Positions 13,194 through 54,019 of a stretch of 64,000 bases of DNA are shown here, in pieces. The translations under genes and the position numbers were made by a program. The notes beneath the pieces were generated by a model. That model had not been told where the DNA came from. It did not search any database and was given only the letters and a program-made list of their open reading frames with translations. Numbering within the stretch: the stretch's first letter is position 1; each line of letters opens with the position of its first letter. Source of the DNA: an uncultured Chloroflexia bacterium (lineage in GTDB: Bacteria > Chloroflexota > Anaerolineae > Anaerolineales > UBA4823); the NCBI GenBank assembly GCA_963702535.1, contig CAVPDG010000004.1:94609-158608 (forward strand), in the 5' to 3' direction.

Positions 13194-13208
13194 CGTATCC
13201 TCCTGGGT

Positions 13209-14177
13209 CTAGCCCATCGGCATGTGGTGCCGGGCGGCATAGCGACCGGTAATATAGTGGTAGAGCTGCCGCTCCAGGTCGGTGAGCAGTCCGCTCGCCC
13301 CGATGCGGAACAGGTCGGGCATCAGCCATTCGTCGCCCAGCTCCTCTTTCATCAGCGCCTGCCACGCCATCGCCTGCTTGGCTTTGTTCACCCCGCCTGC
13401 GGGCTTGAAGCCCACCTTGTACCCCGTGCGCTGCTGGTACTCACGCATCGCCCGCAGCATCACCAGCCCGAATTCCAGGGTGGCGTTCACGCTTTCTTTG
13501 CCGGTGGAGGTCTTGATGAAGTCCGATCCTGCCATCATCGCCACCAGGCTCGCCTGGTACACCTGCTTGAGCGTGCCCAGGTCGCCCACCGCCAGGATGC
13601 TCTTCATGTGCGCCGCGTTGCCGCATGTCTCGCGGAATTGCTTGATCTCGTCGTACAGCGCCCGCCAGTTGCCGGTCAGCACGTGCGTGCGCGGGATCAC
13701 GATATCGATCTCGCGCGCCCCGGCCTCGATGGCTTGCTCGATTTCGGCGATGCGCTGCGCCAGCGGCGTCTGCCCGGCGGGGAAGCCCGTCGCCACCGAT
13801 GCCACCGGGATATCCGTGCCTTGCAGCGCCTCAACCGCTTCCCGCACGCGGTTGGGATAAACGCATACCGCGCCGACCGTGATTTTCTCCCCGTTAACGC
13901 CCAGCGCCGCCAGCATATCGGGGCGCACCGGTTGTCGCGCCTTGGCGCACAGGCGCTGCACCCTGCCCGGCGTGTCATCCCCCGAGAGGGTGGTCAGATC
14001 GATGCACGTGATCGCCCTCAGCAGCCAGGCGGCTTGCCATTCTTTCTTCACCGTCCGCCTGCCGCTCAGCGTGGCGGCGCGCCGCTCCACCGCGCTGCGG
14101 TTCACCCGGGCATCCATCACCCAGTCCAGATCGATCGCTGTTCCTGGATTGCGTTCCTGTGTCGCAGACATATTCAA
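13209..14177 (-). CDS. deoC: Deoxyribose-phosphate aldolase (long form)
   Basis: 322 aa with CIDLTTLSGDDT, VCVYP, EIDIVI, FIKTSTGK (Schiff-base Lys context) and FKPAGG. Confidence 0.9.
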   Translation of the reverse strand: MNMSATQERNPGTAIDLDWVMDARVNRSAVERRAATLSGRRTVKKEWQAAWLLRAITCIDLTTLSGDDTPGRVQRLCAKARQPVRPDMLAALGVNGEKITVGAVCVYPNRVREAVEALQGTDIPVASVATGFPAGQTPLAQRIAEIEQAIEAGAREIDIVIPRTHVLTGNWRALYDEIKQFRETCGNAAHMKSILAVGDLGTLKQVYQASLVAMMAGSDFIKTSTGKESVNATLEFGLVMLRAMREYQQRTGYKVGFKPAGGVNKAKQAMAWQALMKEELGDEWLMPDLFRIGASGLLTDLERQLYHYITGRYAARHHMPMG

Positions 14178-33885: not shown

Positions 33886-33922
33886 CGAGGTCTCCCGGCT
33901 GAAGGATGATCATCGATTTTAT

Positions 33923-34145
33923 CGCTTTTTCCCCCTTTGTATTGCTTCTTACACCCGCGGTTTTTGCCTACAAAGCCCAGGCTTCGCTCGGCTCGTTGAA
34001 TTGCACCGTGGTTCCACTTCGGGCGTGCAGCGCCTCCAGCAGCTCCTTCAGGTAGGTTCTTGGCAGATCCGGTGAGAGATACACGGCTCCTTTGAATAGC
34101 TCCTTGTCATCTCTCAATACCCTCGTCCGGCGCGCCTCGCGCACG
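33923..34145. repeat. Left copy of a roughly 223-bp direct repeat (partner at 41920-42141)
   Basis: The hand alignment is gap-free with about 21 mismatches, roughly 90% identity. Both copies are in the same orientation. Confidence 0.85.
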
Positions 34146-41468: not shown

Positions 41469-41648
41469 ATGAACAACTACATGCGAATCAGCAAAATTAC
41501 GATATTAATTGCAGCCGGTATGTCCTTCTTGCTATCTGTTTATCTGTGGTTCACCGGTGACAAAGAAACCGGCCTGTTTGTAGGCATCTGGGTGCCATCG
41601 ATCCTGTCCTTTGGCGCCTTAATGCATTCTGGAAGAAGTGCAAAATGA
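41469..41648 (+). CDS. Unlisted small membrane protein (59 aa, two predicted TM helices)
   Basis: GGTGGAG lies 5 nt before the ATG. Translation: MNNYMRISKITILIAAGMSFLLSVYLWFTGDKETGLFVGIWVPSILSFGALMHSGRSAK. It falls below the 60-aa cutoff of the ORF track. Confidence 0.45.
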   Translation: MNNYMRISKITILIAAGMSFLLSVYLWFTGDKETGLFVGIWVPSILSFGALMHSGRSAK

Positions 41649-41752
41649 ACGAAACGCTTCTTTTTATTTTTGGCTTTATCGCAACGATCGTGGCAATCGG
41701 CCCATTGGTGATTGCAGGCATCAGCGAACAACGATCAAAAAAAGATAGATGA
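41645..41752 (+). CDS. Unlisted small single-TM protein (35 aa), start overlaps the upstream stop (ATGA)
   Basis: Translation: MNETLLFIFGFIATIVAIGPLVIAGISEQRSKKDR, a hydrophobic helix with a basic tail. The ATGA overlap with the preceding ORF suggests translational coupling. Confidence 0.35.
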   Translation: MNETLLFIFGFIATIVAIGPLVIAGISEQRSKKDR

Positions 41753-41919
41753 AACCACTTTGCAGACACACATGACCAACCTCACGAAGTAAATGTTGTA
41801 GACAAGTTAGATATTGATTTAGATAAGCGCCAGGAGATGATTGAACCCCTCATTGCATAATTGGCCGACAATTTGGTCATATTCAGCTTGATCAAACAAG
41901 CCCATTGGAACGTTCTTAA

Positions 41920-42141
41920 CGCTTTTTCCCCCTTTGTACTGCTTCCTTCACCTGCGGTTTTTTCCTACAAAGACCAGGCCTCGCTCGGTTTGTTGAATTG
42001 CACCGCGGTTCCAGTTCGGGCGCGCAGCGCCTCCGGCAGCTCCTTCAGGTAGGTTGTTGGCAGGTCCGGCGAGAGATACACGGCTCCTTTGAATAGCTCC
42101 CTGTCATCTTTCAATACCCCTGTCCGGCGCGCCTCGTGCAC
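41920..42141. repeat. Right copy of the roughly 223-bp direct repeat (partner at 33923-34145)
   Basis: It covers the last roughly 58 codons plus about 45 nt of 3' flank of the intact radical-SAM gene. Confidence 0.85.
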
Positions 42142-43299
42142 GATATCCTGCAAACCTGTCCACAGGTACACGCCGATCGTCACCCACACTCCATTGGGGA
42201 TTTCATAATTGTCCAGCACACTCAGCGTCTCGGCGATGGTTTCGGGCGTCTCTCCCGGCGCTCCCAGCATCAGCGAGACCCCAAAGGGGATCTTTGACCG
42301 GCTCAGCGTTCCCAGCGCTTCCCGCACCTGCTGCGGTGTATAGCCCCGTTTCATCCGCTTCAGCATGCTCTCCGAAGCCGACTCGACCGAGAGATTGGCA
42401 TAGAAGCACCCCGATTCTTCCATCAGCCGGCAGAAGCTGTCCGTGATCTCGATCGGTCGCAGATCCCCGCTTCCCCATTGAAGTTCCGCTTTTTCCATGA
42501 TCAGTGCCCGCAGGATCGCTTCCGCGTGCTTGCGCGGCGCGTTGAAATTATTGTCGCAAAACATCACTCTGCGGCTACCCGTGCTCTCCAGGATGTGCCT
42601 GGCTTCAGCCAGCACCCGTTGTGGGCTTTTCAGCCGGTAGCGCTTGCCTTCTAGTTTGCTGTATGGGCAGTATGTACAGGCGAAGGCGCAGCCGCGTTTC
42701 GTCAGGATGGCAGGCGTGATCTTCCTCTGGGCATACGGCCCCCAATCCAGCAGGTCATAAGCCGGCAGAGCTTGCTGATCCAGATCTAGCACCGGGCGAG
42801 GGGGTGTCTCCTGGTAAATTCCATCCTTTCTTGCCACGCAGCCCGGCGCCGCGGTTAGATCCCCTCCCTCCACCATCAGTTTCAGGAATAGCGGAAAAGC
42901 ATCTTCCCCTTCACCGCGGATGCCGTAATCCAGATCCAGGTAATCCAGCCAGTCCCGCGCAAAGTAATTAAAGCCCGGTCCGCCCAGTACGATCCGGGCG
43001 GGCGAGACCTGGCGGATGGTATCGGTGATCTCCTTCACCCTCGGGCGCAGGTCGCTGTGCCGCGTCCCCAGAGGCGCTCCGCGGTCAACTGTGTCCCCAA
43101 ACACCAGCCGGATGGATACCCCTACCACGTCCGGTTGGAAAGCCTCCAGTCTGTTGCTCAATTCGCCCTTCAGGTCGTCGGCGAACAGCCGATCGTAGAT
43201 ATGCACTTCGTGTCCCGCCTGGCGCGCCGCTCCTGCCACGTAAACTGGCCCACTCGGAGCCGCAGGCTGTGTGTTGGATGATACGATAAGTACTTTCAT
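41965..43299 (-). CDS. B12-binding-domain radical SAM protein
   Basis: 444 aa. N-terminal Rossmann-like cobalamin-binding-type region (MKVLIVSSN...VVGVSIR...IVLGGPG). The radical-SAM cluster motif is RGCAFACTYCPY (CxxxCxxC). The start overlaps the upstream gene by 4 nt. Confidence 0.9.
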   Translation of the reverse strand: MKVLIVSSNTQPAAPSGPVYVAGAARQAGHEVHIYDRLFADDLKGELSNRLEAFQPDVVGVSIRLVFGDTVDRGAPLGTRHSDLRPRVKEITDTIRQVSPARIVLGGPGFNYFARDWLDYLDLDYGIRGEGEDAFPLFLKLMVEGGDLTAAPGCVARKDGIYQETPPRPVLDLDQQALPAYDLLDWGPYAQRKITPAILTKRGCAFACTYCPYSKLEGKRYRLKSPQRVLAEARHILESTGSRRVMFCDNNFNAPRKHAEAILRALIMEKAELQWGSGDLRPIEITDSFCRLMEESGCFYANLSVESASESMLKRMKRGYTPQQVREALGTLSRSKIPFGVSLMLGAPGETPETIAETLSVLDNYEIPNGVWVTIGVYLWTGLQDIVHEARRTGVLKDDRELFKGAVYLSPDLPTTYLKELPEALRARTGTAVQFNKPSEAWSL

Positions 43300-44132
43300 G
43301 CTCCACGCTTCTCGATTTCGAGTCGGTATTCATCCAGACCGTACCCGCTCTCGATCAATTCGATCAGTTTTCTTGTGAAACGCGTCGCCGGCGCCCCATC
43401 GATAACATCGTGGTCGAAGATGATCGTCAGGTTCATCAGCTCGCGCAGCGCGATCTTCCCTTCCACTTCTACCGGCTTGCGGGCGATGCCTCCCACCACC
43501 AGGTCGAGCACGTGCGAGCCGTTCGAGATGCCCCACCCGCTGTGCCCCTTGCCGAACATGCCCACCGATGAGATCCCCACCGTACCCGCCAGCGCCGTGA
43601 CGATCGTCGGGTCGCGGCGCTGCATCGTCCGGAAAGTGGACTTGAATAGGCTGGATAGCGGCCATGGCAGCAGCAGCGCCGAGCGGAACCAGGAGGCTTC
43701 TTTAGCTTCCGGGGTTTCCTGTCTCGCCTGCACCGCCCGGATCTCCTCGTGAATCTCGCTGAAGCTCTTGCGGTTGGCGCCTCGGATGACGTGCCCTCTC
43801 AGGATGAGTTTCTCCCCCTTCTTGAGCTCGATCATGAACCCCACGTCCACATCATCGAACATCACCACTTTTCTACGACCCTTCCGGTATGCCTGTACCG
43901 TTTTGTCCTCATCCACCGCTCGTGCCAGGCACCCGATCAGGTATCCTGTGAAGGAAAGCGTCTCGCCTGTGATGGCTTTGTATTCCTCGATGAAGTCCCT
44001 GGCGGTAGACACATCCACTTCCAAAAGGGCATACATGCTGTGCCGGTCCGCTTTTAGCTCCTGGAAAGCCGCCATGCCCCGCCGCTCTGCTGAGAGCTCA
44101 ACAACCTGGTAGGTTCCGCTTGTTTTATTCAT
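43296..44132 (-). CDS. Stand-alone 2-oxoacid-dehydrogenase E2-type acyltransferase catalytic domain (no lipoyl or subunit-binding domains)
   Basis: C-terminal active-site context LTIIFDHDVIDGAPATRFTRKLIELIESGYGL (the DHxxxDG motif of the CAT/E2 fold). The start MNKTSGTYQVVEL at 44132 was chosen by alignment with the paralog start MSTNTLTYQVVDL. The track ORF instead extends through the tandem repeat to 44207. Confidence 0.8.
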   Translation of the reverse strand: MNKTSGTYQVVELSAERRGMAAFQELKADRHSMYALLEVDVSTARDFIEEYKAITGETLSFTGYLIGCLARAVDEDKTVQAYRKGRRKVVMFDDVDVGFMIELKKGEKLILRGHVIRGANRKSFSEIHEEIRAVQARQETPEAKEASWFRSALLLPWPLSSLFKSTFRTMQRRDPTIVTALAGTVGISSVGMFGKGHSGWGISNGSHVLDLVVGGIARKPVEVEGKIALRELMNLTIIFDHDVIDGAPATRFTRKLIELIESGYGLDEYRLEIEKRGA

Positions 44133-44133
44133 T

Positions 44134-44208
44134 TTTGTTCCTCTCAAGTTTGATCCTCTCAAGTTTGTTCCTATCAAGCTTGTTCCTCTCAAGCCTGTTT
44201 GTGTCACG
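44134..44208. repeat. 15-bp tandem repeat, 4 good copies plus 1 degenerate, filling an intergenic spacer
   Basis: Plus-strand units: TTTGTTCCTCTCAAG (44134), TTTGATCCTCTCAAG (44149), TTTGTTCCTATCAAG (44164), CTTGTTCCTCTCAAG (44179) and CCTGTTTGTGTCACG (44194). On the coding (minus) strand each unit reads CTTGAGAGGAACAAR. Confidence 0.9.
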
Positions 44209-45718
44209 CTCGTTTACGATTTGCCCGCAAGATCAGCGCGCTGCGCAGCACAGCCCAGAGACCGGCAAAACTACCGCAGGACAGGGCGATGCACACATAA
44301 TCTGGTGCAAAGAGCCGCATGAACCCCCGCAGCTTGCCCAGCAAGGGCGCCAGTGTCAGCGCCGTAAGCAGGTTGGGGATGAACGGCAGCAGGATATACT
44401 GCCGCCACATCCGCCCGCGGCTGGGGCGCGAATCGGGCTGGCTGTTCCAGTGCTGCAGCAGCAGCGCTGTTGCAGCCACGCCCAGCATTTGCAGCGCCGG
44501 GATGAGCAGCATGCCCCGCATCACCCACGGCGCCGCGCCCAACATCTGCCGCGCAGGCGCCTCTCCCGCCAGCAATTGCGCTGCCAACATGCCCATCTCG
44601 TCAAATGTCATCTTCATCATCGCGTGGTTAGCATTGAAGAGCAATACGATACCTTTCCTTTGGTCAGGTACGAGCGCCATGAACGCCCCAAAGTCGGGGA
44701 CGACGCCGCTATGCGAGACGATCCTTGACCTGCCGGCCTCCTGGTCGATCCATCCCATGCCGTAGGACCCCAGCGCCATACCCATTTCCTTGATCTCTGC
44801 CGCTCCTCTATGCATCGCTTGAATGCCTGCTTCCGAGAGCAACTGTCTTCCTTTGTATCTCCCTCTGTTGAGCTGTGCGATCAGGTAGTGCGCCATGTCT
44901 TCGGCGCTGCAGATCAGCTGTCCGGAGGGCAGCGAGCCAGGTGGGACGCGCAGCTCGCCTGCGGCGACGGGAAATCCAAACCAGTAGCGGTGCCCCACCG
45001 CCAGCCCGTCCTGTTGCGCCGCGGCTTTCGATGTATAGCTATGCCGCATCTCCAGCGGATCGAAGATGTGTTTCTGGATATACTCGGCGTACGCCTCGCT
45101 GCTGGCAGCTTCCACGATCAGACCCAGCACGTTGTAGTTGGTGTTGCTGTACTCGAATTTCTCGCCCACCTTGCGCCTCAGCTTGAGCGTAGCCAGCGAG
45201 CGCACTTGCTTCTCGGTTGCCTCAGTTTGCTCCTCCAGGTCGCTGAGGCTTGCCAGTCCAAGCGACGTGGGCAAGCCGCTCGTCTGGTTGAGCAGGTGGC
45301 GCACCGTCATCTGCGCGGACGCCTGCGGGTCAGCCACGCAGAACCAGGGAAGGTAGCGCTGCACTGGGGCGTCTAGCTCCACCTTCCCTGCCTCCACCAG
45401 TTGCATCACCCCCAGCGCCGTGATCGACTTGGTCAGCGAGCCGATGAAAAAAGGCGTCTGTGGGTCAGGTGCCTCACCGCCCGGACTCCTCCGTCCGAAT
45501 CCCCGCAGGTGCGTGATCTGCTCCCCCTCCACGATCGCCAGCGCGACGCCCGGTATCTTAAATCGCCGCATTTGCTCTTCAACGAAGGCGTCAATGGTGG
45601 CGTAGTTCCTGCGGCTCGGCGCCGGATGAGCTGGGGCGTTTGCCGCGCGCAGCCGGTAAAGCACCCCCAATGCAGAGCAAGCCAGCAGAATCGGGAAAAG
45701 AAATGGTTTAATTCGCAT
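44204..45718 (-). CDS. Beta-lactamase-fold serine hydrolase with C-terminal TM helices
   Basis: 504 aa. Signal-like N-terminus, SxxK motif in FFIGSLTKSITALGVMQL, and a YSNTNY (YxN) motif. The last roughly 130 aa form several hydrophobic helices. Confidence 0.85.
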   Translation of the reverse strand: MRIKPFLFPILLACSALGVLYRLRAANAPAHPAPSRRNYATIDAFVEEQMRRFKIPGVALAIVEGEQITHLRGFGRRSPGGEAPDPQTPFFIGSLTKSITALGVMQLVEAGKVELDAPVQRYLPWFCVADPQASAQMTVRHLLNQTSGLPTSLGLASLSDLEEQTEATEKQVRSLATLKLRRKVGEKFEYSNTNYNVLGLIVEAASSEAYAEYIQKHIFDPLEMRHSYTSKAAAQQDGLAVGHRYWFGFPVAAGELRVPPGSLPSGQLICSAEDMAHYLIAQLNRGRYKGRQLLSEAGIQAMHRGAAEIKEMGMALGSYGMGWIDQEAGRSRIVSHSGVVPDFGAFMALVPDQRKGIVLLFNANHAMMKMTFDEMGMLAAQLLAGEAPARQMLGAAPWVMRGMLLIPALQMLGVAATALLLQHWNSQPDSRPSRGRMWRQYILLPFIPNLLTALTLAPLLGKLRGFMRLFAPDYVCIALSCGSFAGLWAVLRSALILRANRKRA

Positions 45719-45805
45719 CGGTCGGCTCTCCGTTTTGCTCCTTCTCAGAAGCTATCTTCCACTTTGGTGCATCCTGCCGGGTCCTCCAGCAGTGGATTAT
45801 TCGCC

Positions 45806-47116
45806 TTACTCCCCGCCGCCGCGCACCCACTCTAGCGTCAGCGCCAACACGTTAAAAAGCGGTTCTATCGACAAAACCTCTGGCGCATCCCACTTCTGAT
45901 GGTAGAAAGCAACCATCTGTGGTAGCTTGAAGCCAAGCAGCGTTGTAGCCTTAATGCCTGCCCGGCTAAAGGGTCCGGCGTCATTGGCGGTCCCGGGTAA
46001 GGCGGGCTGTACCTTGTAGGGGATCCCGGCGCGCTGCGCGGCTGCGATAACGCTTTCCACCATCTCGGCGGAGTTCTTAACTGTGCCGTTTGTCTCCGAC
46101 GTTAGGATGGTAATTTCTGCATGGGCGATCGTCTCGAAATTGAGCACCCGGGCATCCATGCGTTTTAGCTCATCCAGGTGGCGCCTGACGTAGCGCCGCG
46201 AGCCCCGATAACCGGCTTCCTCACTCCCGAACGAGATGAAGCGGATCTCAGTGTCTGCGGGTATGCATTCGGGGTGTTTCGCCAGGAACCTGCACATAGC
46301 CACAGCCAGGGCACAAGCCGAGAGATTATCCGCTGCCCCTGGCACAACGCCCCCGTTTTCCCTTCCCCGGGTGTAGAAAAACGCAAAGATCATCGAGGGC
46401 GCTACCGGATAAGCCAGCAATGCCCATCCCAATGTCCCCATGCGAACGATATCGGTGTTACCGGTGATCACACCCGCCAGTTGGATACCGCTCATCACCA
46501 GTATGCTGATCAATGCGAGTATCCATGTCACTGTGAGGATGAAGAACCCGTAACCCGTATACCGCAGCCAGGTGAATTCCAGGGCGCTGTCATGGTGCCC
46601 ACTCAGGATGAGCACTCGCTTCAACTGGCTGCTTTCAGGCTTGCGTAGCGTGCCGATGATATTCACGGACCTTTTCTTCTTGAAAAATCGATCGATCACT
46701 TCGTGACCGGTGAGGAACTCTAGAACGAACAGCAATACTGCGCTGAAAGAGAAAGTGAACGCAGCGGCTGCCATCGCCCAGGGCGAGGCTCCCGGGATGC
46801 GCCCGATGGAGATATTCAACAGGGCAGCAATCAGCATGAAACTTGTGCTGATGAGCTGCGCTCCTAAAAACGCTCCTGGAGCAAAGGTAAAGTCCTCAAC
46901 GGCGACGTTCTCAATACCCAGGTGCGCTTGTAGCTCTTGTTCAAGCATCCGCCCTCGCTCCCGCTCCTGGGGGCTGCCTGGCAGTCCCGGACCTACCTCC
47001 TGGCAGATTGCCGTCACAATCTCCAGGGAATAACGGGCGTCCTGCTCGCTGATAATCTCTGGCATGGGGCTGCCCTCTGGGAGAATCATCTCACCGCTGA
47101 CTTCTTGCCTCACCAC
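45806..47116 (-). CDS. M28-family metallopeptidase with membrane-spanning insertions
   Basis: Zn-ligand contexts: LILSGHHDS, PGAADNLSACA, FISFGSEEAGYRGS, YHQKWD. Hydrophobic helices lie before the catalytic domain and between the HHD and DN motifs. The start codon is uncertain (GTG 47116, ATG 47089 or ATG 47065). Confidence 0.75.
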   Translation of the reverse strand: MVRQEVSGEMILPEGSPMPEIISEQDARYSLEIVTAICQEVGPGLPGSPQERERGRMLEQELQAHLGIENVAVEDFTFAPGAFLGAQLISTSFMLIAALLNISIGRIPGASPWAMAAAAFTFSFSAVLLFVLEFLTGHEVIDRFFKKKRSVNIIGTLRKPESSQLKRVLILSGHHDSALEFTWLRYTGYGFFILTVTWILALISILVMSGIQLAGVITGNTDIVRMGTLGWALLAYPVAPSMIFAFFYTRGRENGGVVPGAADNLSACALAVAMCRFLAKHPECIPADTEIRFISFGSEEAGYRGSRRYVRRHLDELKRMDARVLNFETIAHAEITILTSETNGTVKNSAEMVESVIAAAQRAGIPYKVQPALPGTANDAGPFSRAGIKATTLLGFKLPQMVAFYHQKWDAPEVLSIEPLFNVLALTLEWVRGGGE

Positions 47117-48490
47117 ACGCCCTTCGCCCGTAGTTCCTGCATGGCGGATTTATGGGTCTCGATCAGCCGGGTGATGTCTTCATCGGTGTGCTCGGTGCAC
47201 ATGAACCCATGATGGGGCGGGATGTGCAGCCCGTTCTTGCGATACAACAGCCGTAAGCCAACACTGGCGAACGGATTTCCCCGGTGCGCATCGCGGACGT
47301 TGTTGATCGGTCCACGGGTGGCGTGCATCCAGAACATGGAACCAGCGCCGATGGCAAGCGCTGGATAATCTTCTTCCTGGGCAAAGCGGTTGATCTCAGC
47401 CCGGAAGCGGTCGCCCATGGCGTTAAGGCGGGTGTATAGCTGTGGCTCACGGCTCAGCCGCCGTAGTACAGCGGTCCCCGCCGCGATGACCAACGGGTTG
47501 CCATTGAAGGTGCCCGCCACCAGGATGGATTCCGGCTGTATATCGTATTCCATCAGGCGCATGGCTTCGGCGGTCCCACCCACGGCGCCTACGGGAATGC
47601 CGCCTCCAATGATTTTCCCGTAGGTACTGACATCCGGGATGACCCCGTAGAACTCTTGAGCTCCGCCCGGCGCCAGGCGGAAGCCGGTGATCACCTCGTC
47701 GAAGATGAGGAAAGCCCCGATCTCGTGGGTGATCCGGCGTAACTCGGTTAAGGAAATCCCTGCCAGCGGGTATCGAGCCCCCGGCGCCCTGCACGGGCTC
47801 GATGATCACGCCAGCCAGCCGGTCTGCATGTTGCCGGATTTTATCGAAGGCCGCGGGATGATTGAAGGGCAGGACAATGGTATCCTTCCAGGCGCCTTCC
47901 GCAAGTCCAGGGCTCTCGGGGATAGCGATGGGATCTTCGATGGGTCCAAACGAGCTGGCATTCGGGCTGGGTCGGCCGAGGCTGACGGCCAGCAGGTCAT
48001 GCGTGCCATGATACCCACCCTCGAACTTGGCGATGAGCGGCCGACCAGTGGTGGCACGCGCCAGCCGGCAGGCATACATGGTCGCCTCGCTACCCGAGTT
48101 GCACAGGCTCACCTTATCTACACCCGGCACCATGTCGCAAAACAGCCTGGCAAACTCATGCTCGTGCACATGGCACTGACCATAATGTGTCCCGTCTGGC
48201 AGCGCCTTCCGGATTGCTTCTTGAACATCGTCTGGCGTGTTGCCGAGGATCATGGTCGAGAAGCCAAGCATGAAGTCCAGGTATTCATTGTCATCCGCAT
48301 CCCAAATCCTGGCGCCTCTCGCCCGCTTAACCACCATTGGGAACGGGTCTGCCAGCCGGAAGATGCTGCCCACGCCCCCCGGCATCACCGTGCGGTTACC
48401 CTGCCAGATGGCTAATGACTTCGGGCATTTCGCCATGATCTCGCTGCGATAAGCGTTGAGCAGCTCCTCGACCCTTGCCTTGGCAACCAT
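47110..48490 (-). pseudogene. Class-III aminotransferase (glutamate-1-semialdehyde aminomutase-like); one frameshift
   Basis: 47447..48490 is good through ...VIIEPVQGAGGSIPAGRDFLN. 47110..47694 continues with ELRRITHEIGAFLIFDEVITGFRLAPGGAQEFYGVIPDVSTYGKIIGGG (PLP lysine context). The shift is at about 47745-47750. Confidence 0.85.
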
Positions 48491-48511
48491 CTTCTACACT
48501 CCTTCCCCGTA

Positions 48512-49343
48512 CTATTCTGTTCTCACTATTCCCAACTCTCCATCCAGCCCGTACCCGCTCTCGATCAGCTCCACCAGCCGGCGCACAAAGCGCGTGGCAG
48601 GACCGCCATCAACAATATCGTGGTCGAAGGATACGGTCAGGTTGAGGATCTCGCGCGGCTCGATCCGCCCATCCACGACGATTGGTTTCCAGGAGATGCT
48701 TCCCACGACCAGGCCGAGCGGATGGAGGGTGGGGCTTATCCCCCAGCCGCTGTGGCCCCCACCGAACATACCCACTGATGTAAGCGCGACCGTGCCTCCC
48801 ATCGACACGGCAATGGTTGGATCGCGGCGGCTGTTCATTCGGATCAAGGCGATAACCAACCTGGATAAAGGCCATGGCAGCAGCAAGGCCGAGCGGAACC
48901 AGCTGGGCATCCCTCTGCCCGGCGGTACTGGCTCGGTCTGCACCCTGCGAATCTCGTCATGGATTTCCCGGTAGGTCTTGCGGTTCGCAGCCCGGATGGT
49001 ATGTCCCATCAACGCGCGCTTCTCGCCAACCTGCCGTTCAACCATCAAGCCAACGTCCACATCGTCAAACAGGATGAGTTGTTTGTTACCCTTCCGGTGA
49101 GCCTGGATTGTTTTATCCTCGTCTACCGCTCGTGACAGGCAGAAAGTTAAGAAGCCAGCGAAGGACAGCTTCTCGCCGGTGTCCCTCTCGTGCTCCGCAA
49201 TCATCTTCCGCACGATCGTAACATCCACTTCCAATAAACCGTATATCGTGTGAGCCGGCCAGGACAGTTCTCAGCGCGTTCATCCATACGCGGCGCCCCG
49301 CTGGTAGATCTACGACCTGATAGGTTAAGGTGTTCGTGCTCAC
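48512..49343 (-). pseudogene. Second stand-alone E2-type acyltransferase catalytic domain (paralog of 43296..44132); one frameshift
   Basis: The GTG start gives MSTNTLTYQVVDLPAGRRVWMNALRTVLAGSH. The frame then changes at about 49247-49251 to ...TIYGLLEVDVTIVRKMIAEHERDTGEKLSF...LTVSFDHDIVDGGPATRFVRRLVELIESGYGLD. Confidence 0.75.
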
Positions 49344-49385: not shown

Positions 49386-49829
49386 TCAGCACAGCCGGAT
49401 GCGGATCATCACCGCAGTCTGCGCTGCCTTCTCTACTTCTTGTGCCTTTGGTTCTCCGTGGTCGTCGAAAGTCACCTGGTAATACCTGGCATCACTGGGC
49501 ACCTTGCGCAGGTGGGCTGCCAGACCGGCTGCCACAGCTTGCTTGTCTTCGGCGACCGGCTGGGCCAGCCCTTGAAGCTCCCGTCCCCGGATGCGCAGGG
49601 TAACCGGCGCCCCGCCGCGCAGGTTTTTCCACCAGCCGCCATGAGTGAATACGGTCACCTGATCGCCGTCTTGCGAGTAGTCGACCGGGGTGGTGTAGGT
49701 CTTGCCGCTCTTGCGCCCGGTGAAGGTGATCAACAGAACGGTTTTGCTCACTATCCCGTGGGCGGGAGAGCGGAGGATGAGTTTCATGGTTTTATTGACG
49801 AACGGTGGAATAGTTGGTGTTTCGGACAT
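49386..49829 (-). CDS. Small split-barrel protein, possibly an F420H2-dependent quinone/nitro-reductase family member
   Basis: 147 aa. LITFTGRKSGKTYTTPVDYSQDGDQVTVFTHGGWWKNLRGGAPVTL resembles the deazaflavin-dependent nitroreductase family. The assignment is from memory only. Confidence 0.5.
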   Translation of the reverse strand: MSETPTIPPFVNKTMKLILRSPAHGIVSKTVLLITFTGRKSGKTYTTPVDYSQDGDQVTVFTHGGWWKNLRGGAPVTLRIRGRELQGLAQPVAEDKQAVAAGLAAHLRKVPSDARYYQVTFDDHGEPKAQEVEKAAQTAVMIRIRLC

Positions 49830-49842
49830 TTCAGCCTCTTTC

Positions 49843-50733
49843 TCAGGGTTTCACTTGTTCATTATAAGCATAGGCCGGAGTCGTTTCGGTTAAAAAGCTC
49901 CGGATGATCCCAACCGTGACATCCTTCTCCTCTATTTGTGGGTTATGACCAGCGCACTCAATTAACTCCAGGCGGGCGTCCGGTATGCGATCTGCCAGGA
50001 TAGCTTGATGTTCCGGCGGGAACAGGAAGTCGTAGCGCCCTGCCGTGACCAGCGTGGGCACTTGAATCTCACCGAGCCGGTCCATCACCGTCCAGCCTTG
50101 GAGCATCTGGCCGTAACCAAAGATGAGGGCTTCGGGCCGCAATTTCATCGGCGGGCCCAATCCTAATTTCATTGCAAGCGTGATAATGCCGGGTTGATCC
50201 AAGAGGCTGGAGTGGTACGAGTACGCCTTCAAGAATTTTCTTAAAGTGGGAAAGTAATCATCGACCGTCACCTGCCCGTTTAAGAAACGGTGGGCTGCTT
50301 CCACAGTCTCGGCGTTGTAGCCCCGTTTCGCCAGGAGCTCGGGAGCATTGTGGTTCACCCACCACTGGTCACCACCGGTATTCATCAAGATCAGACGGGA
50401 GAGCCTTTGCGGGTAACGGAGCGCATACTCCAGGGCGACATTCCCGCCAAATGAATGCCCAAGGACGATCCATTGGTCGTAGCCGAGCTCCTGGCGCAGA
50501 GTGTCTGCATCGGCGGTGAGGTTGTCCATCGTCATCGTCGATGCTTCCGCTCCCTCAGAACGGCCGTTGCAGCGGTGGTCATAGAAGATCAGGGTGTATT
50601 GGTCCGCTAAAGGCTCCAGGGGCAGCAGGGTGGTGTGATCCAGGCTGGGACCACCGTGCATGAGCACCAGCGGGTATCCTTGTCCCATGACTTTCACGAA
50701 GAGGGATACATCTCGAATCTGCATGTGTGTCAT
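49843..50733 (-). CDS. Alpha/beta hydrolase (proline-iminopeptidase-like), intact
   Basis: 296 aa. PLVLMHGGPSLDH, nucleophile elbow VLGHSFGG, C-terminal ECAGHNPQIE (His of the triad). Confidence 0.85.
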   Translation of the reverse strand: MTHMQIRDVSLFVKVMGQGYPLVLMHGGPSLDHTTLLPLEPLADQYTLIFYDHRCNGRSEGAEASTMTMDNLTADADTLRQELGYDQWIVLGHSFGGNVALEYALRYPQRLSRLILMNTGGDQWWVNHNAPELLAKRGYNAETVEAAHRFLNGQVTVDDYFPTLRKFLKAYSYHSSLLDQPGIITLAMKLGLGPPMKLRPEALIFGYGQMLQGWTVMDRLGEIQVPTLVTAGRYDFLFPPEHQAILADRIPDARLELIECAGHNPQIEEKDVTVGIIRSFLTETTPAYAYNEQVKP

Positions 50734-50770: not shown

Positions 50771-51001
50771 TTAATCCTTATCGGAATCCAGGGCAGGTGG
50801 ACTGCCGCTGGTGACTGAGATTAAGGTCAGGTTGAGATCGCGGATGCGCTCCAAAACCCCGTGCAGCGCCGCCTGGTCGGTTAGTGCGCCTGAAAGTAAT
50901 GTCTCGTCTCCATCCAGGTGAGTCAGCGTCATGCCCGCAAACCAGTCCGACCAGCGGGTGTCCAGGCGCCCCTTGATTTTGATCTCGTAATAATCCGCCA
51001 T
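50771..51001 (-). CDS. Small conserved hypothetical protein
   Basis: 76 aa, MADYYEIKIKGRLDTRWSDWFAGMTLTHLDGDETLLSGALTDQAALHGVLERIRDLNLTLISV. The composition is protein-like and no function is known to me. Confidence 0.45.
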   Translation of the reverse strand: MADYYEIKIKGRLDTRWSDWFAGMTLTHLDGDETLLSGALTDQAALHGVLERIRDLNLTLISVTSGSPPALDSDKD

Positions 51002-51162: not shown

Positions 51163-51212
51163 GAGAAAATGAGCTGTGTGCGGGCTTTAGCCCGCACACA
51201 GCTCATTTTCTC
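51163..51212 (-). terminator. Perfect 23-bp hairpin terminator downstream of the MalT/LuxR gene
   Basis: GAGAAAATGAGCTGTGTGCGGGC-TTTA-GCCCGCACACAGCTCATTTTCTC. On the minus strand it is followed by GTTTTTCTTCTG. Confidence 0.7.
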
Positions 51213-51312: not shown

Positions 51313-54019
51313 TCAAGGCAAGATGCCGAACTGCCGGGCATGCGCCACCGCTTCGGTCCGGTTGGCTACGTCCAGCTTGCGGTAGATGCTTGCGGTGTGC
51401 GCTTTCACCGTCCCTGGCGATACGATGAGTTGCCGCGCGATCTCCTGGTTGCTCCTGCCCAGGGCAATGAGCTCAAGCACTTCCATCTCGCGCCCGGTGA
51501 GTGCCTCGATTAGCCCCGCGGGTTGAGTGCGTGGCTGGTTTGCCGGGCTCGTTAGTGCAAACGCCCCCAGTATTTTCTGGGCGTAGGGTTTATGCTTTGC
51601 CTCGGTAGACCGCAGGTGGGCAGCCAGTAGCTCGTGAACCGGCTCTCCCATGTCCAAGAAGACGCGCACGTACCCCTCTGCCTCCGCTAGCGCCAGGCAG
51701 GTTTCGATCTGTTGCATGGCTTCAGCCACGCGCCCTTGTCCCGCTGCTGCCGCTGCCAGCAGCAGGCTTCCTTCCAATTGCCTGGTCGTCTGGCTCGCAC
51801 CGGCGAATGCCAGCGTTTCCCCGGCGAGCAGTTCTTCCACTTCGGCGTACCGTCCTTGCGCCAGGCGGATTTGTCCCAGCGTCAGCCGGTACAGCTCCCT
51901 ATGCAGGTGGAAGTCCTCGCTCAGCAGCACATCCTCCGCCCACTGCGCCGCCGCTCGCAAGTCTCCCCTTGCCAGCGCCACGCGCGCTCTCAGCGTGCGC
52001 AGGTCCTCGTCGAATTCGCGCGGCTGGGCGTGCTCATGCAGCCTGGCTTCGAGCTTCTCCACGCTTTGCATCGCCGCGCCGTAGTCTCTCTTGGCGATGA
52101 GCACGCGTGTTAGCGCCGTCCATCCGAAGCCGTCCGTCATGATATTCCGCCACGGCTCGTTGTCTTTCAGCCCCTCACGGATGTATCTCTCAGCCTCCTC
52201 CAGGCGGTTCCATTCGGATAGCGCCTCCCCCAGGTCGATCTTCATGCTGCCCGATGTGTAGACAAACCGCACGCCTCTCTCCTCGATCGACGCCAGGTAT
52301 TCTCGGCACAGCTCGGCGGCTGCGTGCAGGCGCCCCATGATCAGGTAGAGACGGCTCAGGAATGGCACCAGCGTGGGGACGTTTGCTGTTCCCCGTAGCG
52401 CCTTCTCGCGCTGGATGCACTCGAGTGAAACATCCACCGCCCGCTCCAGCTCACCTCGTCGCGCCAGCGCCATCCCGTACAGAATATCTGCCGCGTTGCG
52501 CAGCAATGGGTCCTGCGCCGGTATCTCATCCAGTAAGCGGTATTCGGGCAGGGGAGCCAGGCTGCTCGCCTCTGCCGGCGAGGCAAGGAAAGCCACAGCC
52601 GTATCGATGAAGATGAGCATCCAGCGCTGACCGGATTTGCCTTCTCCCTTTTCGAGTTGTTGCCTCAAGTCGTTCAACAATGGACGGGCTTTTGCGATGC
52701 GCGCCTGGGTGATCATCAGCCACGCCTGGTACAATCCGATTTTCGGTCGTGCCAGGATCATCGCTTGCGGCAGGCTCTCCGCCAGCAGCAGCACCGTCGG
52801 GTCGCTCTCTGCCAGGCGTTGCGCTCCGTAGCGCTCAACCAGCTCCCCTGCCTTGTCCACCGCCTCGGCAGCCAGCAGGTGCTGGATCGCCTCGCCGATC
52901 AATCCGTTCTGCTCCAGCCAGGCGGAAGCTTTTATATGCAGTTTGAGGATCAGCTCGGGTTGGCTTTGCTGCAGCCGGGCGCGCAGCAGGTCGGCGAACA
53001 GTTGGTGGTAGCGGTACCACGTCCGCTCATCGTCCAGCGCAACCAGGAAGAGGTTTGCCCTTTCCATATCCTCCAGGATAGATCCGGGAGTCGAGCGCCT
53101 GCGTTTCCGGCTCTCTTTCCGCTGTCCATTCCTGAGGCTCGCGGATTGCCTCGCACAGCGGGGCGCACAAACGCTCCAAAATCGACGTGCGCAACAGGAA
53201 TTCCTGAATTTGCTGCGGCTGGCTTGCCAGCACCTCCTCCAGCAGGTAATCCAGAATGTAGCGGTTACTGCCCGAGAAGCCTTCGATGAACCCACGCCCA
53301 TCTTTTCGCTCGCGCAGCGAAAGTGCCGCCATTTGTAGCCCGGCGATCCAACCCTCCGTTCGCTCTTCGAGGCTGGCTACGGCTGCGGCGTCCAGTTTTA
53401 AACCCATCATCTCGTTGAGGAACTGGTTTGCTTCGGACTCGCTGAAGCGCAGGTCAACCGCCCGCAGTTCCACCACTTGCCCGCGCGCCCTTAAACGCGC
53501 CACCGGTAGCGGCGGGTCCGAGCGGCTGGCGATCACCAGGTGCAGGCGATTCGGGCAGTGCTCGAGCAGAAAAGCCACTGCCTCGTGCACTGCCGGGTTG
53601 GTGATGAACTGGTAATCGTCCAGCGCCAGTGCGATTTCCCCCGTAGCCCCCTCCAGGTCGTTGATCAGGCTCGTCAAAACGGCTTCCGGCAGCGCTTGCG
53701 GCGCAGCCATCAGCAGTTGCGCCGCCTCGCCTCCGATAACCGCATCCACTCCCTGCAGGGCAGCCGTCAGGTAGCTCAGGAAGCGCCCCACCAGATTGTC
53801 GCCCTTGTCCAGCGATACCCAAGCCCCGCGCACGCCGCAGCTCGCCATGCAGCTTGCCAACAGCGTCGTCTTCCCGAAACCTGCCGGAGCTGTGATGAGC
53901 GTCAGCGGACCTTTCAACCCCTCCGCCATCTGCGCCAGCAGTCGCGGCCGCCCCACCAGGCTGGGCCGGGTGAAGGGTGGGTGCAGCTTCGTGCGAAGAA
54001 GCAGGTCAACCTTTTGCAT
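51313..54019 (-). pseudogene. MalT-like LuxR-family regulator (NTPase + helical repeats + C-terminal HTH); one frameshift
   Basis: N-terminal P-loop LITAPAGFGKTTLLAS and LALDDYQ (53027..54019). The section ...ILEDMERANLFLVALDDERTWYRYHQLFADLL, the TPR-like repeats and the LuxR HTH LTGREMEVLELIALGRSNQEIARQLIVSPGTVKAHTASIYRKLDV lie in 51313..53301. The shift is at about 53081-53092. Confidence 0.85.

Follow-up and report, generated by a model that had tools for sequence, protein, structure and literature searches.

The window, which is the whole 64,000-nucleotide stretch of DNA analysed here, carries nine co-directional minus-strand genes that form one operon. A cluster of six genes had been recognised in an earlier, sequence-only reading; the six are indeed co-directional, but the unit takes in three more genes upstream. 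Read along the minus strand, the operon begins with an ORF of 76 aa (50771..51001) that is conserved in related loci, followed by ABH, an S33 proline-iminopeptidase-like alpha/beta hydrolase (49843..50733; Pfam Abhydrolase_1, 111 bits), and a DDN-like split-barrel protein of the F420H2_quin_red family (49386..49829; Pfam, TIGR00026). Next come E2a, a lipoyl-less E2-type acyltransferase (48512..49343; Pfam 2-oxoacid_dh only), AT, a GSAM-family class-III PLP enzyme (47110..48490; Pfam Aminotran_3 in both of its fragments), an M28 metallopeptidase with two TM hairpins in its catalytic domain (45806..47116; Pfam Peptidase_M28), and an S12 beta-lactamase-fold serine hydrolase (44204..45718; Pfam Beta-lactamase, 241 bits). 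The last two genes encode E2b, a lipoyl-less E2-type acyltransferase that is intact at 278 aa (43296..44132; Pfam 2-oxoacid_dh only), and a class-B radical-SAM enzyme, B12-rSAM (41965..43299; Pfam B12-binding and Radical_SAM). The Pfam scan thus found every domain claimed for the original six genes, and the two E2-like motifs quoted for them, FDHDVIDGAPATRF and FDHDIVDGGPATRF, are both present in the sequence.

The tight spacing and two overlaps described earlier are borne out by the coordinates: rSAM and E2b overlap by 4 nt and M28 and AT by 7 nt, the other gaps among the original six genes being 71, 87 and 21 nt, and gaps across the whole nine-gene operon range from 13 to 87 nt. Terminator-like matches inside the operon are weak (5-7 bp stems). 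An intrinsic-terminator-like hairpin on the minus strand (51165..51210), with a 20-bp stem, 11 GC pairs and a T-rich tail, stands before the first gene and parts the operon from the gene of a MalT/LAL-type LuxR regulator (51313..54019, minus strand; AAA_16, TPR_MalT and GerE by Pfam).

The domains assigned to AT and E2a were right, but neither interval is a single ORF. In the AT interval (1381 nt) one additional base near 47749 divides the gene into overlapping ORFs at 47447-48490 and 47110-47694. In the E2a interval (832 nt) the N-terminal 24 codons, from GTG 49343, are out of frame with the rest; compared with a 92%-identical locus (L040), there is one surplus base near 49272. A frameshift likewise breaks up the regulator gene, leaving overlapping ORFs at 53027-54019 and 51313-53301.

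The E2-like proteins consist of a catalytic domain only

E2a and E2b are 59% identical. The earlier claim that they hold the catalytic domain alone agrees with the Pfam scan and extends to their subfamily. The best 120 of 3485 homologues of E2b are 249-313 aa long and match PF00198 only; the lipoyl-less subfamily comprises 392 clusters at 50% identity, and nearly all of its best 150 representatives are of at most 330 aa, with no lipoyl or E3-binding domain in the four longer ones scanned. A structure search with E2b (Foldseek) matched E2 catalytic domains at ~20% identity, and the E2-like proteins score 44-50 bits against the NCBIfam E2 equivalog models, whose cut-offs are at least 379. Residues D240, H241, D245 and G246 (E2b numbering) are invariant, His241 and Asp245 being the catalytic pair of the DHxxxDG motif. 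Where classical E2 has its oxyanion Ser, the aligned residue is Gly, so activity is not guaranteed. The proteins also have an insertion specific to the family, WFRSALLLPWPLS, which is aromatic, basic and amphipathic. A candidate start of E2b at the upstream GTG 44207, together with a pentapeptide match, is probably spurious; homologues begin MNK....

No E1, E3 or lipoyl protein was found among ORFs of at least 140 aa between 36 and 56 kb or among 20 larger ORFs from the rest of the window, as the sequence-only reading had noted for E1 and E3 in the neighbourhood, and no E1 or E3 gene occurs at four Pfam-annotated homologous loci; the remaining related loci were screened solely with the cluster proteins of this window. 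Since the catalytic domain stands alone, its His/Asp pair is invariant and no E1 or E3 was found, the most economical reading, already proposed earlier, is that E2a and E2b would act as free CoA-dependent acyltransferases and not in a dehydrogenase complex. In two or three loci the neighbour of a distant paralogue, E2c, is a flavoprotein disulfide reductase of the SthA/E3-like kind.

Three hydrolases are predicted to lie across both membrane faces

TM segments had been reported in M28 and S12, and hydropathy analysis revealed them in both. M28 has four, arranged as two hairpins (82-132 and 190-247) inside the catalytic domain and bordered by basic cytoplasmic loops; its catalytic domain is predicted to be on the cytoplasmic side. 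Candidate metal-ligand motifs are HHD, ADN, SEE and HxKWD, and the protein is remote from solved M28 enzymes (44 bits, PDB). S12 has an N-terminal signal or anchor, a catalytic domain with the motifs SLTK, YSN and HSG, and predicted C-terminal helices at 395-426, 434-462 and 472-501, which form a conserved three-helix membrane domain with many invariant residues. Hydropathy places its catalytic domain probably outward. Its PDB matches are Flp, Pab87 and ClbP; S12 resembles ClbP in combining an outward catalytic domain with a C-terminal three-helix membrane domain, whereas it differs from the prodrug-activating peptidases in having the general YxN motif (YSN) and not their marker Ser/Thr. The AlphaFold model (pLDDT 56) is too poor for judging whether the membrane domain lines the active site. 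ABH, with the nucleophile motif GHSFGG, is a cytoplasmic alpha/beta hydrolase whose PDB matches are proline iminopeptidases; it scores 117 bits against TIGR01250, below the cut-off of 168. ABH and S12 are fused into one protein on one contig (P0226/L083). The three hydrolases are thus located across both membrane faces, and these topologies, together with accessory ICMT/PEMT-like and polytopic membrane genes elsewhere, fit the earlier suggestion of a membrane-associated amino-acyl, peptide or lipid substrate.

Aminotransferase, radical-SAM enzyme and minor components

The best PDB match of AT is GSAM (284 bits). AT retains the PLP lysine and the SxxR arginine, which in GSAM binds the substrate carboxylate, but lacks the Glu406 region and has a longer lid loop. 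Among 21 orthologues, 63% of its positions are at least 90% conserved, and its GSAM-family relatives include beta- and omega-transaminases. In B12-rSAM the CxxxCxxC motif spans residues 204-211, and the best NCBIfam match, TIGR04072 ('lipid biosynthesis B12-binding/radical SAM protein'), scores 230 bits, short of the 360 set as cut-off.

The 76-aa ORF (YYEIKIKGxLD...DQAALHGxLERIRDLNLxLxSV) has homologues at the same position in three related loci (L003, L035 and L040) and one more in L025. It had no match in Pfam, NCBIfam or the PDB and does not look like an ACP or a precursor peptide; the proposed search for either kind of gene yielded no ACP and no plausible precursor peptide. The DDN-like protein exceeds the cut-off of TIGR00026 (deazaflavin-dependent nitroreductase family; 50 against 46 bits).

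Conservation across related loci

Of 61 loci whose E2 relative is close (at least 50% identity), 51 held at least one partner gene, as against 2 of 21 loci having distant E2 paralogues only; a non-conserved neighbourhood, which would have spoken against the sequence-only reading, was therefore not what we found. The operon is specific to Anaerolineae and related Chloroflexota, and occurs in dozens of Anaerolineae genomes; its conservation is high (60-80% identity) in hundreds of species belonging to several orders. S12 is present in 42 of the 61 loci, ABH in 36, AT in 30, M28 in 24, rSAM in 10 and the DDN-like protein in 9. Regulator homologues lie upstream in 7, including an intact 897-aa orthologue in L003. 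The commonest order elsewhere is ABH-S12-E2a-M28-AT-E2b-rSAM, with ABH-S12-E2a, mostly hydrolases, as the most widespread core.

In most genomes S12 is followed by E2a, and AT by E2b and then rSAM; the E2a orthogroup normally follows S12, and the E2b orthogroup lies between AT and rSAM. The arrangement in which each E2 paralogue leads a sub-module, as had been proposed, is thus lineage-specific, E2 trailing in most loci. Nor did B12-rSAM hold up as a core partner of the E2-like genes: it is an optional add-on, mostly straight after E2b and in one locus (L019) straight after AT. The set of genes varies from locus to locus: AT, M28 and rSAM are each missing at some, and E2a is missing at the closest relative, L084. 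This patchiness argues against one fixed linear pathway. Eight related loci add an ICMT/PEMT-like membrane methyltransferase, of a family whose members methylate carboxylates or phosphates linked to lipids, and some add a polytopic protein of ~390 aa.

Discussion

What was observed directly is which genes the operon contains, their synteny and domain identities, the conservation of catalytic residues and the hydropathy topology. With three genes frameshifted within 6 kb, the cluster in this genome could be a decaying, non-functional remnant in which E2a, AT and the regulator are truly frameshifted; a close relative (L040) keeps a 172-aa AT remnant without M28, S12, E2b and rSAM, and L084 lacks E2a. 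We consider this improbable, because every frameshift is of one base, coding sequence flanking each shift is otherwise intact and conserved, and contigs of the same sample series (L002, L084) are full of split genes. The 97%-identical L084 moreover shows a different indel pattern at the same AT site, which suggests systematic base-calling error, and the single extra bases in AT and E2a are most likely assembly errors. It is more improbable still that the E2-like proteins belong to 2-oxoacid-dehydrogenase-type chemistry, with a lipoylated carrier, E1 and E3 encoded elsewhere and functionally unrelated neighbours. The E2 fold, the invariant His/Asp and the position of E2c beside a flavoprotein disulfide reductase would suit such a role, but the subfamily members scanned have no lipoyl or E3-binding domain, E1 and E3 are absent from the scanned window ORFs and the four annotated loci, equivalog scores are far below cut-off, the oxyanion Ser position is Gly, and the E2-like genes recur in tight synteny with those of the hydrolases and AT.

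Two pathway readings bear on the whole gene set. The operon may make a specialised metabolite by acyl protecting-group or prodrug logic, whereby the amine of a small, possibly toxic compound would be masked by an acyl group that the E2-like proteins attach, AT and the optional B12-rSAM would tailor the compound, S12 would unmask it after export like ClbP, and M28 and ABH would be cytoplasmic editing or immunity deacylases. Consistent with this are the ClbP architecture of S12, accessory genes that vary in a cluster mosaic between close relatives, a regulator of the LAL type, which typically governs secondary-metabolite clusters, and the relation of the rSAM to PhpK-type enzymes, whose substrates are N-acetylated intermediates. 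We regard this as unlikely, since S12 has YSN and not the prodrug-peptidase Ser/Thr, no NRPS, PKS, ATP-grasp enzyme or exporter was present at any locus examined, and the identity across orders and species is unusual for a secondary-metabolite cluster. Equally, the operon may serve the inducible breakdown or salvage of compounds with amide or ester linkages, drawn from the environment or from cell-wall debris (D-amino-acid or beta-amino-acid peptides, lipopeptides or aminolipids). It would then employ the outward S12 enzyme, together with M28 and the S33 enzyme, as exopeptidases or deacylases, AT to deaminate a beta- or omega-amino acid, and the E2-like proteins to pass the released acyl groups to CoA. 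All three hydrolase families are aminopeptidase-rich (S12 D-aminopeptidase/DD-peptidase, M28, S33 prolyl aminopeptidase), AT has beta- and omega-transaminase relatives, MalT-type activators are classically catabolic, and the most widespread form is mostly hydrolases. This too appears doubtful: B12-rSAM and the ICMT/PEMT-like methyltransferase belong to biosynthesis or tailoring, the cluster has no conserved genes for an uptake transporter, a dehydrogenase or beta-oxidation alongside it, and hydrolytic release gives no thioester donor, which the E2-type mechanism requires.

Our main reading, to which we assign a probability of about 0.4, is that the operon would carry out membrane-organised acyl transfer, transamination and deacylation of a carboxylate-bearing amphiphilic amine for the cell envelope, the likely substrate being, for example, an N-acyl amino-acid-type lipid or a lipidated building block. 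We infer the substrate class, reaction order and direction (synthesis or turnover), and the functional steps, from family membership at low identity (E2 ~20%, M28 44 bits, rSAM below cut-off). The proposed logic resembles the acyl-protect, transaminate, deprotect sequence of DapD-DapC-DapE and ArgD-ArgE, because the enzyme classes of the operon match those of the succinylase DAP and acetyl-ornithine pathways, namely a class-III aminotransferase, a clan-MH metallohydrolase and a CoA-dependent acyltransferase. Three hydrolases are unusual in a biosynthetic operon, and turnover or catabolism fits equally well. Genes for a transporter or flippase, an acyl-CoA ligase, an ACP or a fatty-acid synthase are absent from the conserved set, and the frameshifts in AT and E2a also count against this reading.

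On the envelope-amphiphile reading, the upstream MalT/LAL-type activator would control expression of the operon. At the cytoplasmic face, E2a and E2b, as free CoA-dependent acyltransferases, would transfer acyl groups to the substrate, AT would install or move an amino group on the acylated intermediate, and the membrane-embedded M28 and the S33-type hydrolase would strip acyl or aminoacyl groups; B12-rSAM, where encoded, may alkylate the product of the AT-E2b branch. At the outer face, after translocation, S12 would trim or transacylate the amphiphile, its three-helix membrane domain holding the lipid part. We found no literature on this operon and, as the sequence-only reading had concluded for its cluster, no described pathway fits the nine-gene set: the operon is a real, uncharacterised pathway, which may act on an amphiphile of the cell envelope.

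Gene content and transcriptional organization

A sequence-only reading of this DNA had described six minus-strand genes, and ORF calling combined with Pfam annotation found all of them with the domains that it had named. They encode a B12-binding radical-SAM enzyme (rSAM; 41965-43299, with CxxxCxxC at residue 204), the E2-type catalytic-domain protein E2b (43296-44132, 278 residues), an S12 serine hydrolase of the beta-lactamase fold (44204-45718), an M28 metallopeptidase (45806-47116), a class-III aminotransferase (AT; 47110-48490) and a second E2-type domain protein, E2a (48512-49343). Both quoted sequence motifs occur in the ORFs and the close spacing holds, adjacent genes either overlapping (by 4 and 7 nt) or lying 71, 87 and 21 nt apart. 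The proposed six-gene extent was too short, since the block runs on upstream with three more genes; AT and E2a carry the expected domains, but each gene is split by one extra base that had been overlooked.

The three additional genes, also on the minus strand, encode a DDN-like split-barrel protein (49386-49829; Pfam), an S33-type alpha/beta hydrolase (ABH; 49843-50733; Pfam, NCBIfam and PDB matches) and a conserved 76-residue product (50771-51001) with homologues at the same position in related loci (L003 5579-5809, L035 5192-5443 and L040 8319-8552). This small ORF sits between the regulator and hydrolase genes and has the motif YYEIKIKGxLD...DQAALHGxLERIRDLNLxLxSV. When checked for acyl carrier protein (ACP) or precursor-peptide identity, it had no match in Pfam, NCBIfam or the PDB, and its even conservation along the whole length is unlike that of a leader/core precursor peptide. 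Upstream on the same strand lies a frameshifted gene for a MalT/LAL-type LuxR regulator (51313-54019), in which Pfam detected AAA_16 in one ORF and the MalT TPR and GerE HTH domains in a second, overlapping one; the intact orthologue in L003 is a single polypeptide of 897 residues.

A terminator with a 20-bp stem (51210-51165, minus strand) separates the regulator gene from the nine-gene block, inside which only weak terminator-like matches were found (stems of 5-7 bp). On this arrangement, the nine genes are best regarded as one operon, with the activator transcribed separately. An Rfam scan of the whole window returned no RNA element, and no cobalamin riboswitch was among the results. In the 677-nt gap 3' of the rSAM gene, a stretch on the minus strand (41551-41769) is conserved with the close relative L002 (7155-7373); it reads as a 72-residue ORF of odd composition, has no Rfam match and is probably a non-coding conserved sequence.

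Frameshifts and mosaic structure

One extra base near 47749 turns the AT gene into two overlapping ORFs, and another near 49272 puts the first 24 codons of E2a, counted from GTG 49343, out of frame. Each of these shifts is a single inserted base relative to the relatives L040 (92% identical) and L002 (85%). In L084, which is 97% identical, the same spot in AT has another indel pattern; L002 and L084, both from one sample series, have split genes throughout, and the coding sequence on either side of each shift is conserved. On these grounds the frameshifts are probably base-calling errors of a long-read assembly, with real pseudogenisation in this strain as an improbable rival. The regulator shift, the third within about 6 kb, likewise suggests an error-prone assembly.

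Comparison with L084 gave uneven identities: about 97% for the regulator, AT, M28 and S12 genes, 94% for E2b-rSAM and only about 78% for the segment holding the small ORF, ABH and the DDN-like gene. The segment 48512-51100 (small ORF, ABH, DDN-like gene and E2a) is 92.5% identical to L040, and L084 lacks E2a. The window therefore appears to be a mosaic, produced either by recombination between lineages or by chimeric assembly. In L040 (10800-12235) the cluster ends after E2a and is followed by about 960 nt of other sequence; AT persists only as a frameshifted remnant of its N-terminal 172 residues, and M28, S12, E2b and rSAM are absent.

Two further features of the window were recorded. An imperfect direct repeat of about 230 bp (33919-34145 and 41916-42142) brackets the segment 34146-41915; one copy consists of the 3' end of the rSAM gene and about 50 nt downstream, and the other lies about 7.8 kb away. 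The bracketed 7.8 kb have a lower GC content than their surroundings and encode a fasciclin protein, two GFO/IDH/MocA oxidoreductases, an ATP10-like protein, DoxX, an SDR and an FMN reductase. L084 (94-97% identical) lacks the whole segment and has a single repeat copy that is a hybrid of both, so that the segment looks like an insertion, or like something deleted by recombination between the repeats. Elsewhere, an 873-residue ORF with two aldehyde-dehydrogenase matches (10744-13365, minus strand; 648 bits) could represent a tandem fusion or else one more artefact of the assembly.

Conservation of the neighbourhood

A scan of 185,579 species genomes yielded 465 confirmed relatives of the E2-like protein. 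The best 80 of these 465 hits were inspected, and 78 scan loci plus four contigs entered the analysis. The scan loci were screened by tblastn for the window's cluster proteins only, and neighbours were annotated with Pfam for L001-L004, L083 and L084 (contigs looked up by protein). We grouped the loci into those with an E2 protein at least 50% identical (n = 61) and those with only distant paralogues below 50% (n = 21). In the first group S12 was present in 42 of 61 loci, ABH in 36, AT in 30, M28 in 24, rSAM in 10, the DDN-like protein in 9 and the regulator in 7. At least one of S12, ABH, AT, M28 and rSAM accompanied the E2 gene in 51 of these 61 loci, against any partner in 2 of the 21 distant-paralogue loci. 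The neighbourhood, whose conservation the sequence-only reading had made a test of its proposal, is thus recurrent.

The commonest full order is ABH-S12-E2a-M28-AT-E2b-rSAM (L008, L010, L012, L013 and L033). The E2 genes fall into two orthogroups. E2a comes after the S12 gene with few exceptions; E2b comes after AT without exception, and rSAM is often the next gene. The window's own order, E2a-AT-M28-S12-E2b-rSAM, is a rearrangement specific to this lineage. It is shared, apart from the missing E2a, by L084; L002 keeps AT-M28-S12-E2b-rSAM on a contig that starts within the DDN-like gene, with E2a outside its coverage.

Variation around this core gave further evidence of linkage. In L083 (440-2896; protein P0226) ABH is fused to the N-terminus of S12 in a single ORF of 818 residues, flanked by DDN-like and M28 genes. 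Eight loci have a gene for an ICMT/PEMT-like membrane methyltransferase of about 151 residues between ABH and S12 (for example L016 13258-13713, L041 7974-8429, L046 8004-8477 and L057 7989-8444). A polytopic protein of roughly 390 residues with two CxxC motifs (CLYCGR and CxVCGRG) is encoded in seven loci and accompanies the methyltransferase in several; the window has neither gene.

Around E2 relatives from Terrabacter, Propionibacteriaceae and Myxococcota MAGs, all outside Chloroflexota, no gene recurred as a neighbour. Distant E2-like paralogues, of about 43% identity, also occur without cluster partners (L078 8738-10795, L079 and L082; L063, L065 and L069). They lie directly 3' of a GT1 (MGT/EryCIII-like) glycosyltransferase gene in three loci, and a gene for an SthA/E3-like flavoprotein disulfide reductase lies directly 3' of the paralogue in two loci and nearby in a third. 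The operon itself occurs in dozens of species-level genomes from several orders, and its proteins are conserved at housekeeping-like levels.

The E2-like proteins differ from dehydrogenase-complex E2 in domain make-up

With the extra base removed, E2a and E2b are 59% identical over 261 residues. The sequence-only reading had held that both consist of the catalytic domain only, and this was borne out: PF00198 (79-90 bits) was the sole Pfam match, and neither protein has a lipoyl domain or a match to the peripheral-subunit (E1/E3) binding domain PF02817. E2b has 3485 homologues in a large protein collection, the best 120 of which measure 249-313 residues and contain PF00198 only; the few named by source are from Anaerolineae, Anaerolineales or Chloroflexota. 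A profile search of 1.84 billion representatives gave 392 clusters at E <=1e-30, and nearly all of the best 150 representatives are at most 330 residues long. Rosetta-stone fusions were sought in four longer representatives, which showed no lipoyl domain, no E3-binding domain (PF02817) and no informative extra domain. An E2b start further upstream, at GTG 44207, would bring in a pentapeptide-repeat match but was rejected as spurious because the homologues begin at MNK and have 268-290 residues.

An AlphaFold monomer model of the E2-like protein (pLDDT 70) had E2 cores as its top Foldseek matches, with E-values of about 1e-16 to 1e-12 at about 20% identity. The proteins share with E2 catalytic domains (PF00198; PDB 3mae, 1eaa and 1scz) the fold and the His/Asp pair of DHxxxDG, in which D240, H241, D245 and G246 are invariant. 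Given this fold and the invariant pair, their chemistry is presumed to be CoA-thioester acyl transfer.

The E2 core of 2-oxoacid dehydrogenases assembles as a 24-mer or 60-mer. Unlike such complex-bound E2 proteins, E2a and E2b have no E1 or E3 genes as neighbours, none being found among the window ORFs scanned or in four Pfam-annotated homologous loci; the operon that they belong to encodes hydrolases, an aminotransferase and a radical-SAM enzyme instead. They score 44-50 bits against the NCBIfam sucB model, whose cut-off is 379. They also contain a family-specific insertion of about 30 residues (WFRSALLLPWPLS...), rich in Trp, Phe, Leu, Pro and basic residues, which is aromatic, moderately amphipathic and invariant at several positions. 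The residue aligned to the oxyanion Ser of 3mae ('LQVES') is Gly ('LVVGG'), and many homologues have Thr one residue later; in E2p the oxyanion-stabilising residue is Ser558. As judged from their domain make-up, gene context and scores, the E2-like proteins are not members of the E2-complex family. A residual dehydrogenase-complex function with partners encoded elsewhere is very improbable, its only hint being the SthA/E3-like gene that adjoins distant paralogues in two or three loci. That these proteins act independently of dehydrogenase complexes can be said with considerably more confidence than what their substrate is.

Membrane-associated hydrolases

The S12 hydrolase has the motifs SLTK at 94, YSN at 190 and HSG at 336. 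It begins with a hydrophobic segment and ends in a basic C-terminus; hydropathy peaks at 403-421 and 442-460, and helices are predicted at 395-426, 434-462 and 472-501. Only these helix positions were taken from the AlphaFold model, which was built from a 25-sequence alignment (pLDDT 56) and was too poor for a fold search. Hydropathy and the positive-inside rule, applied to the N-terminal segment, the three C-terminal helices and the basic tail, predict an outward-facing catalytic domain. Many residues of the membrane domain are invariant, which argues for a role beyond anchoring.

Its PDB relatives are Flp/FmtA-like proteins, Pab87 and ClbP. S12 peptidases of the ClbP type activate prodrugs of colibactin, xenocoumacin and zwittermicin, and a Yx(S/T) signature, with Ser or Thr at the third position and a D-Asn pocket, marks the D-Asn-specific enzymes (PMC9889268). 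The operon's hydrolase resembles ClbP in its S12 match (92 bits over the catalytic domain), in the general SxxK, YxN-type and HxG motifs and in C-terminal helices with a basic end. Its membrane domain has no sequence similarity to that of ClbP, however, and Flp (FmtA-like) and Pab87 are closer PDB matches. No NRPS or PKS genes were found in any locus, four of these being Pfam-annotated and the rest screened for cluster proteins only. With YSN in place of Yx(S/T) and that context lacking, assignment as a ClbP-type prodrug peptidase was rejected.

The M28 protein matches PF04389 with 68 bits (gathering threshold 21), and its candidate metal ligands, assigned by position only, are HHD at 174, ADN at 262, SEE at 298 and HxKWD at 406. 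Hydropathy places two transmembrane hairpins inside the catalytic domain with basic loops alongside, so that under the positive-inside rule this domain should be cytoplasmic.

Aminotransferase and radical-SAM enzyme

The best PDB matches of AT are glutamate-1-semialdehyde aminomutases (GSAMs; 284 bits). Like HemL and the GSAM-family transaminases (beta-transaminases, the MycA AMT domain and GntE), it keeps the PLP lysine (YGKIIGGG) and the substrate-carboxylate arginine of SxxR (GVGSIFR), both conserved in 21 orthologues, among which 63% of positions show at least 90% conservation. Identity as HemL was rejected: the two fragments score 189 + 124 bits against TIGR00713 (hemL; cut-off 527), 'PPHHGF' replaces 'PSQFEAGF' so that the Glu406 segment ('FEAGF') is missing, and the lid loop has the insertion 'GRPSPNASSFGPIEDP' where GSAM has 'GSGVATLG', making it 7-10 residues longer.

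The rSAM protein combines an N-terminal B12-binding domain (PF02310, 54 bits) with a radical-SAM core (PF04055, 87 bits; CAFACTYC at residue 204), the make-up of class B enzymes. Its best curated match is TIGR04072, 'lipid biosynthesis B12-binding/radical SAM protein', to which it aligns over the full length with B12 domain and CxxxCxxC core. The score is 229.9 bits against a cut-off of 360, and, unlike in that family, its neighbours include no fatty-acid-synthase or ACP genes. A tetrapyrrole link, considered on account of the GSAM-like AT, the BchE-like rSAM and a HemG-like flavodoxin near distant paralogues, was set aside because there is no other haem or chlorophyll gene. By sequence comparison the cluster proteins fall outside the HemL, ClbP and TIGR04072 families, lacking a defining feature of each, and no enzyme of the operon scores high enough for a characterised equivalog family.

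A possible pathway and its rivals

In the succinylase DAP route (DapD-DapC/ArgD-DapE) and the acetyl-ornithine route (ArgD-ArgE), a substrate is acyl-protected, transaminated and deprotected. The adjacent genes E2a, AT and M28 represent the same three enzyme classes, namely CoA-dependent acyltransferases, class-III aminotransferases and clan-MH metallohydrolases. In contrast to those routes, the acyltransferase has the E2/CAT fold rather than a left-handed beta-helix or GNAT fold, the hydrolase is a membrane-embedded M28 rather than M20 enzyme, AT belongs to the GSAM subfamily, and other lysine or arginine pathway genes are absent. Bacterial pathways for aminolipids, the ornithine and glycine lipids (OlsB/OlsA, OlsF and GlsB/GlsA), may offer a second parallel, in that two acyltransferases would modify an amino-acid head group at the membrane and tailoring enzymes would be optional. 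The folds are unrelated, however; the conserved set holds no OlsB/GNAT or PlsC-type enzyme, ABH scores 53 bits against the OlsI model (cut-off 385), and the cluster hydrolases have no counterpart there.

Membrane embedding, the ICMT/PEMT-like gene and the conserved S12 membrane domain point to an amphiphilic substrate. From the conserved gene set, the two acyltransferases without dehydrogenase partners, the carboxylate-binding arginine kept by the GSAM-family AT, the hydrolases predicted on opposite membrane faces and the optional methyltransferase and rSAM tailoring enzymes, we propose a pathway that acts on a carboxylate-bearing amphiphile. At the cytoplasmic face this compound would be acylated by E2a and E2b and aminated by AT; M28 and ABH would then edit it, rSAM could alkylate it on the AT-E2b branch, and S12 would trim or transacylate it at the outer face, with the whole operon under a MalT-type activator. 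We put the probability of this entire scheme at roughly 0.4.

Two other readings draw on the same genes. The ClbP-like architecture and the LAL regulator would suit a prodrug or protecting-group secondary metabolite; this is unlikely, given the YSN motif, a conservation that is unusually high and wide for such a product, and a gene context in which no NRPS, PKS or exporter was found. Inducible catabolism or salvage of amide-linked compounds would account for three aminopeptidase-type families and for a MalT-type regulator, but it leaves the rSAM and ICMT-like genes and the E2 chemistry unexplained and is, in our judgement, doubtful. The acylation-amination scheme can be carried further, more tentatively: Anaerolineae may have recruited a large, lipoyl-less E2 branch as free, membrane-peripheral acyltransferases that, with a GSAM-derived AT, an optional rSAM alkylase and hydrolases on both faces, build and edit a hitherto unknown, phylum-specific class of N-acylated amino lipid or envelope block, the ClbP-like membrane domain of S12 handling a lipid and not a prodrug.

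Significance for Anaerolineae

In the full-text literature, within its incomplete coverage, we found no paper describing the cluster or the lipoyl-less E2 subfamily, and searches on PF00198 in gene clusters, on TIGR04072 and on Anaerolineae lipids or clusters gave nothing relevant. All components come from known superfamilies and the cluster is not categorically new; it is a robust, widespread and uncharacterised operon for which no surprising mechanism has been demonstrated. Natural variants with and without E2b-rSAM, M28, AT or E2a make it experimentally tractable.

In sediments, soils and wastewater reactors Anaerolineae rank with the most abundant bacteria and with those least often brought into culture; to our knowledge little has been established about their envelope chemistry. 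If the E2-fold proteins are free acyltransferases, a textbook complex-bound fold would be extended to a stand-alone role, and the operon would open a way to study a lipid or wall component particular to this lineage, possibly of use as a biomarker. If the operon were catabolic instead, it would represent a new route for amide-linked compounds.
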